DNA of 64,000 nucleotides from a virus. Below the pieces are notes generated by a model. The model was not told where the DNA came from, did not search any database, and was given only the letters and a program-made list of their open reading frames with translations. Of this stretch, positions 17,692-50,595 are shown in pieces (positions within the stretch are counted from its first letter, which is position 1; every line of letters begins with the position of its first letter). A program made the position numbers and the translations under genes. Location of the stretch: the IMG/VR virus record IMGVR_UViG_2547132402_000007, positions 16,805 to 80,804 of that record; one strand, 5' to 3'.

Positions 17692-17703
17692 TCGCTGCGC
17701 GGC
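17692..17703 (+). promoter_or_regulatory. TCGCTGCGCGGC pre-RBS motif, copy 1 of 5
   Basis: Exact copies at 17692, 19513, 34756, 37876 and 50571, each ending 13-17 nt before an ATG. Confidence 0.75.
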
Positions 17704-17718
17704 TTGTGAGGACATTAT

Positions 17719-18213
17719 ATGAGTGGCTTTTTTAACTCTCGCGGGGATGTAGGCTTCTTGGCCCAAAACTTCAACCGCAACTTGGCCGCAGGGGAAAAGC
17801 TCAACGGCTCTGAGTTTTGGATGGACATCCATGGGCATGAAGATATCTCCGTGCTGATCCGAACCACCCAGATCCCTGAGCTGGCTCGTGAAGGTGTCGA
17901 AGATACTGGCCCAATGGGCCTGAAATTCAACCAATACGGGACCCTGAAAAACTCCGGGGAGATCACGGCCAACTGCGTAGAAACGCTAGAGGGTGCGGTT
18001 ACTGCAACGGTAATCAATCTGGTGAAGAACAAAACCTACGTGGATATTACGATCCGTGCAACGCCGGAATCTATGGGCGGCGTTTCCTCGCCGGCGCTAA
18101 TCCGCAAGCTATCGCATTGCACCATCGGCTGTGATCAGGTGGACTTCAGCACCGAAGATACGACAGCTCTTGTTAAGCCGAGCCTGAAAATCACCTACAA
18201 CTGGGTTGAATAA
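17719..18213 (+). CDS. bplB: Tail tube protein BplB-like
   Basis: HEDISVLIRTTQIPEL, KFNQYG, CVETLEG and DFSTEDTTALVKPSLKITYNW match recalled P1 BplB. Confidence 0.85.
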   Translation: MSGFFNSRGDVGFLAQNFNRNLAAGEKLNGSEFWMDIHGHEDISVLIRTTQIPELAREGVEDTGPMGLKFNQYGTLKNSGEITANCVETLEGAVTATVINLVKNKTYVDITIRATPESMGGVSSPALIRKLSHCTIGCDQVDFSTEDTTALVKPSLKITYNWVE

Positions 18214-18230
18214 CCATCCCTGGCCGACCT

Positions 18231-48795: not shown

Positions 48796-48902
48796 GATAA
48801 CCCCTTAATTTGTTGTTTATTGCTTGAAAGGTTTATTCTTTCGCCGCGCGCGGTGTAATTATCCTAACGAAATGCGGAAATTACAAAGGGGGACTGGTTT
48901 CC

Positions 48903-50555
48903 ATGCCAGCCAAAGACAAGATATCTGCGTTTGTACGCATTTTTACTGGGTATAACCCAGCCGATCAGGATGACTATTCAACTGGTTATCAGGTAGGTGG
49001 TGGGTCAGCCGTAGGTTACACGCCAACAGCGGCGGCGATAGGCTCTAGGAGTGGAGAGTCTCTGGATGGATTGGGAACCGTCACGGGAGAGTTTGTCGCA
49101 GAGCCTGAATTACCGCTGGACCGTTTTTCTCGCTATGTCGAGTATGAACGTATGGCGAGGGATCCTACCCTGGCAGAAGGTTTGTCGATTCACTTAACAC
49201 ACGCGTTATCTGTGAATAAACGGACTGGGCTGAGCTTTGAAATCGTGCCAGCGGGCGATGATCTAGCTGTGGCAAAAGAGCTCATGGATGATATTGGCTT
49301 CAAGCTGAATAAGTTGATGGTCGGATGGGCTCGAACTATGTGTGTTTACGGCGTCTCATATATTCGCCCACACATTGCTGATGGAGCGGGGATTACCCAT
49401 TTTGAGAGTAATTACTACACGCTCCCGAGGTTTGTCCGTGAGTATGAGCGCGCAGGCGCACTGGCTGGGTTTACTTGTGAACATTTTATTGAACCTGGTG
49501 GTATCCGGTTCCGGCTGAGCCAACCTTGGGACCTCATCCCATTGAAAATTCCATATTGGGCGCCTGACTCTATGCAGATGCCGATCCAACAGGGTAGCGA
49601 GCCATTCAGTCTGCTGACTGATCCGAAGGAGCGGGTGCCACAAGAAACGCAGAACTACGGCACCAGCCTATTTGAGAATACGTTTGGTCCATACAGTGAG
49701 TTCAAACAGGCCATGCGCAGCCTGAAAGGTGCTAGGCAGATTAGCGGCAACATCGAGCGTCTGATTGGGTTGAATACCGACTCGTTGGATCCTGTCCGTG
49801 CTGCGTCGTATGTGAATACGATCGCTGCCACATTAAAGCGTTCGGCTGAAAGCTCCATGAAGGCGCTACAGCGGCGGGGGATTCTGCCGACAGTATTCAA
49901 TCGGCTGCTTCCCATCATGGGTGGCGGTAAAGGGGGGATGACCGTAGACACGCAGGTCTACAATGCCGATATCCAGCACATCGAAGACGTTATGATGCAC
50001 ATGCGTCGAATGGCATCGAGCATTGGCCTGGACATATCTATGCTGGGATGGTCTGACATGCTGGCTGGTGGCTTAGGTGAGGGCGGTTTTTTTCGGACTA
50101 GCCTGCAAGCGGCGATGCGTGCCCAGTGGATCAGGATGGCGGTTCAGACGTTTATCGAGCGAGCTATCGAGATTCACATGGCTGTGAAGCATGGGAAGGT
50201 TTTCACTGACGCTTATCGACCATACAAGGTGGTGTTTAATAGCCTCAACAACGCAATTCAGGAGGAGGAGAATGTGGAGCGTGCCAGCCGGGCAGAGTAT
50301 TCGAGTATGGTCGTTACGATCCTCGATACCATTCAAAATGGCAGCCTGGCTCACTCGGAGACGTTTAAGCGCCTCATTCTGGGTAATGTATTGGACGTTG
50401 ATGAGAAGCAAATTGATAGCGTGATCAAGGAGCTGGCCTCGGCAGTGACAGAGCAGGGTGAGGATGCTGCTATGTTTGAATCTCTGATGCGGAATCAGAT
50501 CAGCCGAGATGAGCTGGAGCAAATTATTCGAGATACTTTGTTGCCGGCGCGGTAA
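48903..50555 (+). CDS. prt: Portal protein Prt
   Basis: LPLDRFSRY..YERMARDPT, YGVSYIRP, NYYTLPRFVREYER, GLGEGGFFRTS; divergent from darB as in P1. Confidence 0.9.
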   Translation: MPAKDKISAFVRIFTGYNPADQDDYSTGYQVGGGSAVGYTPTAAAIGSRSGESLDGLGTVTGEFVAEPELPLDRFSRYVEYERMARDPTLAEGLSIHLTHALSVNKRTGLSFEIVPAGDDLAVAKELMDDIGFKLNKLMVGWARTMCVYGVSYIRPHIADGAGITHFESNYYTLPRFVREYERAGALAGFTCEHFIEPGGIRFRLSQPWDLIPLKIPYWAPDSMQMPIQQGSEPFSLLTDPKERVPQETQNYGTSLFENTFGPYSEFKQAMRSLKGARQISGNIERLIGLNTDSLDPVRAASYVNTIAATLKRSAESSMKALQRRGILPTVFNRLLPIMGGGKGGMTVDTQVYNADIQHIEDVMMHMRRMASSIGLDISMLGWSDMLAGGLGEGGFFRTSLQAAMRAQWIRMAVQTFIERAIEIHMAVKHGKVFTDAYRPYKVVFNSLNNAIQEEENVERASRAEYSSMVVTILDTIQNGSLAHSETFKRLILGNVLDVDEKQIDSVIKELASAVTEQGEDAAMFESLMRNQISRDELEQIIRDTLLPAR

Positions 50556-50595
50556 TATCCGCACGCCTTCTCGCTGCGCGGCGGTGGAGGTCTAT

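Follow-up and report, generated by a model that had tools for sequence, protein, structure and literature searches.

The nearest described systems to the element reported here control translation at or next to the ribosome binding site (RBS), by means of either an antisense RNA or a protein. In phages P1 and P7, C4 (Rfam RF01695; immI, c4-icd-ant) is a 77-nt RNA from the 5′ end of a longer transcript, whose antisense sequence is complementary to a sequence next to the icd RBS and whose 5′ end is matured by RNase P. Antisense systems such as CopA/CopT and RNAI/RNAII start pairing through kissing loops, anti-antisense activators of the DsrA/RprA-rpoS type open hairpins that occlude the Shine-Dalgarno sequence (SD), and in MS2/PP7 coat, Mu Com-mom and T4 RegA initiation is governed by a short conserved hairpin that lies at the RBS or overlaps it. 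To our knowledge c4, sar, OOP, P4 CI and IsrK each control one neighbouring gene, usually with an immunity or antirepressor function. IsrK, from the Salmonella prophage Gifsy-1, is derived from a leader as the short terminated form of a longer mRNA, and acts in trans near the RBS on the translation of the long mRNA (PMC12197685). A review of phage small RNAs includes no phage RNA whose conserved seed is directed at several late structural and lysis mRNAs of the phage itself (PMC12197685), and our literature search found no described equivalent. Here we analyse an exact 12-mer, TCGCTGCGCGGC, repeated before late-gene RBSs in a 64-kb stretch of viral DNA (the window, from IMG/VR record IMGVR_UViG_2547132402_000007). 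From its sequence and that of its complement we lean, by a modest degree, towards its being the target box of a trans-acting antisense RNA of C4-like design that would form kissing loops with late-gene RBS hairpins.

The viral record from which the window is taken measures 92,387 bp and is about 80% complete; genome coordinates below refer to this whole record and window coordinates to the 64-kb stretch. P1 is a distant relative of the phage, whose PmgB is 41% identical to P1 PmgB and has no match above 49% identity in the phage and plasmid collections. The 12-mer occurs exactly five times in the window, always on the + strand, at 17692, 19513, 34756, 37876 and 50571, compared with 0.03 copies expected by chance; none of 100 dinucleotide-preserving shuffles reached five copies. 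Allowing up to two mismatches, the window contains 12 copies against 7 expected, so there is no excess of degenerate ones. Each copy starts 2–22 nt after the stop codon of an upstream open reading frame (ORF; stops at 17690, 19501, 34744, 37854 and 50555) and ends 13–17 nt before an ATG, with a GAGG-type SD in between, and the ORF map places all of the sites inside long polycistronic units, in real intergenic gaps. By PHROG profiles, the genes 3′ of the first four copies encode a BplB-like protein of 164 aa (phrog_1120), PmgB, a DdrB-like protein of 907 aa and an endolysin; the fifth is the gene after the portal gene, Pro by synteny.

These results agree with a previous sequence-only reading of the window, which had given the same five positions, all on the coding strand after a stop codon and 13–17 nt from an ATG, had reckoned such a 12-mer to be expected far less than once in 64 kb, and had used gene names that proved broadly right. 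The copies at 37876 and 50571 share a longer identity of 26 nt, and the local sequence bears out the common CCTTCTCGCTGCGCGGCG(T/G)TGGAGG described for them by that reading. A search of the whole genome added one further exact copy, the sixth, which that reading had missed; it lies on the opposite strand at genome positions 9247–9258, about 7.5 kb upstream of the window. A stray 10-mer, GCTGCGCGGC, at window 45051–45060 (+), antisense to a DarB-like gene, was the sole copy of the core away from an RBS. In all, the 12-mer is a real, non-random and conserved RNA-level element at late-gene RBSs.

Folding places the 12-mer at the apex of a predicted RNA hairpin at all five sites, with the outer arms pairing with the SD. 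The inner stem is (U)CGCU/GGCG and the loop GCGC, one copy folding in an alternative register, and the lower arms differ between sites (CCUCUU/AAGAGG, CUCCUUC/GGAGG, GUCC/GGAC and others). All five hairpins are on the + strand of the window. The first (17682–17713; 12-mer 17692–17703) precedes the BplB-like gene (ATG 17719) and has an arm, GUCC, that pairs with the SD region GGAC. In the second (19506–19533; 12-mer 19513–19524), before pmgB (ATG 19540), the arm CCUCUU pairs with AAGAGG, which includes the SD, with a paired probability of 1.00. The third (34746–34780; 12-mer 34756–34767) lies before the DdrB-like gene (ATG 34785) and pairs CCC with the SD GGG. The fourth (37870–37896; 12-mer 37876–37887), before the endolysin gene (ATG 37904), pairs CUCCUUC with GGAGG (SD paired probability 0.98), and the fifth (50565–50591; 12-mer 50571–50582), before the gene that follows the portal gene (ATG 50596), pairs GCCUUC with GGAGGU (0.97). 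Over the five sites the paired probability of the SD was 0.52–1.00, against a median of 0.53 over 97 other genes in a crude set of 102 genes (one-sided Mann-Whitney p=0.005), and the z-scores of the individual hairpins were unremarkable. Intrinsic terminators or repeats of the repetitive extragenic palindromic type were rejected as the identity of the hairpins, as no U-run follows any of the five and each is fused to an SD.

The inverted sixth copy belongs to a putative regulator RNA, hereafter the leader, which lies on the + strand at genome 9200–9322 (L001 1454–1576), outside the window. This is a non-coding stretch directly upstream of a + strand operon that starts with a Mat homolog, 33–39% identical to P1 Mat, and continues with baseplate genes. 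In order along the + strand it consists of a box, ATACTAACGAAA, 4 nt, TATATT, a 78-nt RNA, a short A-rich spacer, a stem-loop followed by U7, and the SD and ATG of mat. A scan of the leader region for sigma-70 consensus promoters gave no match, and the presumed promoter is the box with the 4-nt gap and TATATT. The ends of the 78-nt RNA form, in the predicted fold, a 17-bp stem that closes a three-way junction, and the terminator scan identified the following stem-loop and U7 as a + strand intrinsic terminator. The leader fold has a z-score of −4.65 on the + strand vs −2.29 on the − strand. The exact complement of the 12-mer, GCCGCGCAGCGA, is contained in the 78-nt structure, where it occupies the hexaloop and 3′ stem of the second internal hairpin; the hexaloop, CGCGCA, is unpaired with a probability of at least 0.93 and is complementary to UGCGCG, the target loop together with the weak pair that closes it. 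An Rfam search matched no family at the target sites or the leader. The translational regulator site that had been suggested for the 12-mer is supported in kind, by its place at the apex of an SD-occluding hairpin, although the regulator indicated is an RNA with the exact complement and not necessarily a protein.

Whole-molecule duplexfold and cofold energies did not discriminate targets, and an accessibility-corrected, RNAup-like script that adds the opening energies of both partners was used instead. The corrected energies were −15 to −17 kcal/mol at the five sites, −11.5 at the 5′ untranslated region (5′UTR) of gpR and −1.1 ± 1.9 at other initiation regions. The duplexes at the five sites span 13–17 bp and reach past the 12-mer in different directions depending on the target: 15 bp for the BplB-like gene (AACUCGCUGCGCGGC, −15.6), 14 bp for pmgB (−15.1), 17 bp for the DdrB-like gene (UCGCUGCGCGGCGGUUU, −15.4), 13 bp for the endolysin gene (−16.5) and 15 bp for the gene after the portal gene (−17.0). 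The excess of flank extension is modest, with p about 0.006 in a liberal estimate and 0.10 in a conservative one that discounts shared flanks. In an annotation-free scan of both genome strands the five sites ranked at the top and gpR next, apart from the leader's own complement and one match to its terminator stem. All six sites use leader nt 41–62 and end 11–22 nt before the start codon, and the remaining matches use structural stems of the leader and lie deep inside genes. The leader carries, then, a conserved and accessible seed complementary to several mRNAs at their initiation regions.

Partial copies of the 12-mer had also been reported before gpR and the capsid gene. Both exist, and the first is supported as a related site. 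The gpR sequence, GCGCGGCGGUUUCU, has only nine bases in common with the box family, and five further bases match the 5′ flank of the leader; GCGCGGCGGTTTCT (window 26983..26996, +) is complementary to a shifted leader window, AGAAAUCGCCGCGC. The partial copy itself, GCGCGGCGG at 26983, is found nowhere besides the true sites, and the gpR element is kept in three lineages, being conserved in relatives L009, L010 and L013. On this sequence evidence the gpR 5′UTR is a probable sixth target. The capsid 5′UTR, GGTAAAAGTAAGGCTGCGCG (window 12747..12766, +), is a doubtful member: it matches two leader segments in crossed order, and is neither significant alone nor conserved. We rejected as a target its partial copy, GCTGCGCG at 12759, an 8-mer with 14 copies in the genome and no conservation in relatives. 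The complement of the second conserved block of the leader, GGTAAAAGTAA, directly abuts GCTGCGCG in the capsid 5′UTR, and this 11-mer match is at chance level.

Close relatives were available only as Logan, ENA or NCBI contigs, which we reached by protein look-ups; searches of INPHARED, PLSDB, IMG/VR and GTDB representatives gave no close relatives, and nine genome-contig matches to the junction pattern were discarded as chance matches in unrelated GC-rich metagenome-assembled genomes. In five lineages whose PmgB is 98, 71, 65, 62 and 60% identical, the core GCUGCGCGG is invariant at the BplB and pmgB junctions and the flanks have diverged. The leader is present in three lineages with Mat 97, 67 and 50% identical, and in their alignment no invariant non-coding block is longer than the complement of the box, or anti-box (CGCCGCGCAG); conservation is otherwise seen in blocks at the promoter box, the U-run and the start of mat. 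Each of these three lineages has its own, different + strand terminator, and the lineage with 67% Mat identity folds into a different but equivalent long closing stem (L016 core). The pairing core has only three substitutions, two in targets and one in a leader, all of them pyrimidine transitions opposite G that keep a wobble pair. This invariance of the core over lineages with 50–70% protein identity, while flanks diverged, indicates purifying selection on box and anti-box.

A single contig of 84,268 bp contains the leader (CCGCCGCGCAGUG) together with four junctions, those of the tube gene (AUGCUGCGCGGCA), pmgB (ACGCUGCGCGGCGG), ddrB (ACGCUGCGCGGCGA) and the endolysin gene, lyz (UCGCUGCGCGGCAU); three of its sites have a common AUCCCUACU flank. 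P1, in turn, has only a leader of about 20 nt after LPmat, and the phage-plasmids of Enterobacter kobei and Pantoea, the nearest catalogued ones, have short mat leaders with neither terminator nor anti-box, and target junctions without the box. Leader and boxes are thus both absent from P1 and from these two plasmids, and, since the box is absent where the anti-box is absent and present where it is present, the two co-occur. Exact k-mer repeats in the distant relatives L007 and L008 were only Chi-like words.

In the mechanism that we propose, the RBSs of five late mRNAs, and in a shifted form that of the gpR mRNA, would be held closed by the pairing of the lower arms with the SD. A promoter about 25 kb away (CTAACGAAA box, 4 nt, TATATT) would start a + strand RNA before the mat/baseplate operon, and the terminated leader, or a processed 78-nt core, would act in trans. 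Loop-loop contact between UGCGCG and CGCGCA might nucleate pairing, extendable to 13–17 bp next to the SD, and this would change translation initiation, or create a processing site, on several late mRNAs at once. Pairing could activate, if full pairing consumes the inner stem and linkers of 0–4 nt strain the outer stem of 4–6 bp until the SD is released; or it could repress, if a duplex ending 0–4 nt from the SD hinders the 30S subunit or recruits a nuclease. We infer the transcription and termination of the leader, its pairing in vivo and the effect of this pairing from the complementarity, folds and conservation described above.

The leader resembles C4 in several respects: it occurs in the same phage family, its core is of nearly the same size (78 vs 77 nt), both have a terminal stem of about 17 bp and a three-way junction, and in both the antisense sequence lies in the second hairpin. 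Moreover, the leader would lie, like C4, at the 5′ end of a longer transcript, and both RNAs are complementary to a sequence next to an RBS (for C4, P1 a2/b2 annotation). An unpaired ACC/CCA follows the stem in the folds of P1 C4, of the leader core and of the L016 core, and the leader core shows an acceptor-like stem followed by CCCA. Nevertheless, the leader falls outside the Rfam C4 family: the C4 model, which scores P1 c4 at 68.8 bits as a positive control, gave no match on L001 at E≤1, on the 151-nt leader at E≤10, on the leaders of the relatives or in the rest of the genome. They also differ in location, upstream of mat and the baseplate genes vs upstream of icd-ant, and in seed, since the leader has a single GC-rich one where C4 has a′/b′, directed against a2/b2 at the icd RBS. 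Likewise, the leader would have five to six dispersed trans targets in late morphogenesis and lysis genes, as opposed to the one cis-proximal mRNA target of C4, and, unlike C4, it has its own intrinsic terminator after the core. Of the immI module, Icd, Ant1 and KilA were not found in the genome by tblastn, nor c4 by Rfam; PacA, PacB and a 25%-identical C1 homolog are present.

The leader is also like IsrK, in that it would be a prophage-type RNA, the short terminated form of a longer mRNA, pairing near an RBS, although IsrK acts on its own long isoform (orf45/anrP) and the leader targets would be several other operons. With the DsrA/RprA-rpoS, CopA/CopT and RNAI/RNAII systems it has in common a target RBS closed by an intramolecular stem and GC-rich complementary loops suited to loop-loop nucleation; however, pairing of the leader would be at the hairpin apex and not at the anti-SD arm, so that activation is not the obvious outcome. 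MS2/PP7 coat, Mu Com-mom and T4 RegA act at one or few sites through a known protein, whereas here there is a conserved complementary RNA and no protein candidate was found.

The hairpins could nonetheless be operators for a phage or host RNA-binding protein that, like MS2 coat, Mu Com or T4 RegA, makes the RBS accessible or shuts it, the complement in the leader being then an anti-operator decoy or unrelated. There is indeed a conserved hairpin at the RBS, with weak covariation; its invariant loop and closing pairs over a variable lower stem have the classical look of a protein-bound hairpin, its inner stem shows one compensatory C-G to U-A change, and it occludes the SD. We judge a protein operator unlikely, however, as it leaves unexplained why a structured, terminator-ended leader should have the exact complement as its most conserved block in three lineages, and why the gpR site and the target flanks match the leader past the shared core. 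Furthermore, the inner stem is broken in 2 of 15 copies, and we found no candidate protein, Mat looking like a terminase-type nuclease and not an RNA binder. We give least credit of all to a double-stranded DNA site, with six copies, one of them inverted, for a roadblock, a transcription factor or a nucleoid-type organiser. An exactly conserved core of 9–12 bp and an opposite-orientation copy downstream of a promoter would fit such a site, which on the other hand gives no reason for the constant coding strand, the position between stop codon and SD and the 13–17 nt to the ATG at ten or more independent junctions, nor for arms complementary to the SD or for changes that are all compatible with wobble pairing.

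Two further explanations seem to us very improbable. The 12-mer might be a stand-alone element for mRNA processing or stability, either an endonuclease site or a protective 5′ stem left after cleavage of late transcripts, independently of the leader; its sites fall in true intergenic gaps within long polycistronic units, and some coincide with separate P1 late promoters (lyz, R), but the stem is too short for RNase III alone and the conserved anti-box would be unexplained. This possibility is partly compatible with antisense pairing, which could guide cleavage; in that form an RNA processing signal, as suggested by the sequence-only reading, is still conceivable. Alternatively, a neutral RBS cassette without regulatory role could have been copied and spread by recombination, the inverted copy being accidental, as the 26-nt identity between the copies at 37876 and 50571 and the AUCCCUACU flank at three sites of one relative might suggest; yet the core is invariant at 50–70% protein identity, where the flanks and the neighbouring non-coding sequence have completely diverged.

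A novel late-promoter element, also considered by the sequence-only reading, can be rejected. The 12-mer sits between the stop codon and the SD, and a transcript starting after it would lack an RBS or a start codon, so it is not a promoter; nor is it a late promoter of the P1 type, since there is no −10 at the required spacing that leaves the RBS in the transcript. The Lpa-dependent late promoters of P1 consist of a 9-nt −22 box (AAGTGACTT), 4 nt and a −10 hexamer, and the 12-mer is like them in its association with late genes and unlike them in geometry and position. The same reading had considered the 12-mer different from the P1 late promoter, and the annotated P1 promoters do differ in layout and sit elsewhere. 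A separate dispersed box, (ATA)CTAACG(A/G)AA, occurs 13 times in the genome, often followed by 4 nt and TATnnn, with the geometry of the annotated P1 late promoters; the 12-mer and this CTAACGRAA box are distinct motifs. Its copies are at window 3750, 7820, 30863, 48864 and 62694 (+) and at 60074, 59794 and 53720 (−), with five more outside the window, and they include boxes syntenic with P1 LPmat, LPdar and LPpro. The copy at 30863..30881 (+; CTAACGAAA), in the position of P1 LPdar, heads the operon with the DdrB-like and endolysin targets, and that at 48864..48882 (+; CTAACGAAA), in the position of P1 LPpro just before the portal gene, heads the operon with the fifth target.

Several points weigh against the leader acting as an antisense regulator of late genes. 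That all five sites are complementary to the leader amounts to a single observation repeated five times, and, as the core never varies, there is no true compensatory covariation in trans. Column covariation of the target hairpin is weak as well, with one compensatory pair (the inner-stem C-G to U-A), one G-U and two breaks. Pairing would involve the apex of the hairpin, where classical activators pair with the anti-SD arm, and blocking the leader-bound nucleotides in silico did not free the SD in a simple constraint model. The leader RNA, its ends and its timing are predictions from sequence. Finally, the CTAACGRAA box is of uncertain nature, a late-promoter element or an operator: two copies lie before a ParM-like partition gene, and searches for an Lpa homolog in the roughly 80% complete record, by tblastn, by a PHROG scan near pacA and with PF25716 and phrog_1704 over the genome, gave none, so that the label late is unproven for this box. 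Whichever of the two it is, the copy before the leader would mark a promoter directed into it.

Other features were observed around these loci. The mat gene (L001 1588–2232; genome 9334–9978) encodes a protein without Pfam domains, whose Atlas model is similar to the RNase H-like nuclease domain found in large terminases (TM 0.56–0.61); this predicted fold hints at a DNA-maturation nuclease, and does not support Mat as an RNA chaperone. The baseplate operon of the 84-kb relative carries, downstream of mat, an inserted OrfB/TnpB gene of the IS605 family (Cas12f1-like_TNB; L036 14741–15844, −), and the leader of a relative has GUAGGG, vs CCCUAC arms, which is possibly just its −10 element. The capsid 5′UTR (window 12720–12790) contains a sequence like the P1 C1 operator, TTTGCTCTA, and a hairpin that covers the GTG start of the capsid gene; its sequence differs in relatives L010 and L013, with the pairing kept. 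A GC-rich hairpin in the gap after the BplB-like gene (CCAGCTCCCGCC...GGCGGGAGCTTT, window 18214–18269) looks like a terminator or stabiliser within the tail operon. In a distant relative, the Citrobacter freundii plasmid NZ_CP114569 (L008 17830–20000), unrelated and site-specific hairpins precede the RBSs of bplB, tail and pmgB genes, and the SD is occluded by several of these, so that structured junctions may be a general feature of the P1-like family and the shared box not. Just upstream of the window, a tRNA gene (L045 5726–5799; genome 16425–16498; Rfam tRNA, 65.9 bits) lies among small ORFs, upstream of ParF/ParG genes.

The antisense reading would account for an exact repeat that is otherwise puzzling, in a branch of the P1 family that is poorly sampled and has been seen in metagenomic contigs alone. 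If confirmed, it would provide a compact and testable case of multi-target riboregulation of virion assembly and lysis timing, would show how new targets can be given to the C4 scaffold of P1, and would yield an orthogonal seed/box pair (12 nt, GC-rich and presented by a hairpin) usable for synthetic translational control. A more ambitious idea, which we consider possible though slightly short of an even chance, is that this P1-like phage-plasmid lineage has put a C4-type riboregulator to a new use, as the master switch of the lytic programme at the post-transcriptional level. One leader RNA, through a six-base kissing loop, would then gate a scattered set of at least five to six late genes in a coordinated way, by acting on their translation or processing (tail tube/baseplate, PmgB, DdrB, endolysin, Pro and tail-fibre R). 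If so, these phages would have an RNA-level late regulon that P1 itself does not have, and which might make up for internal late promoters that are missing and, perhaps, for Lpa, which is apparently absent.

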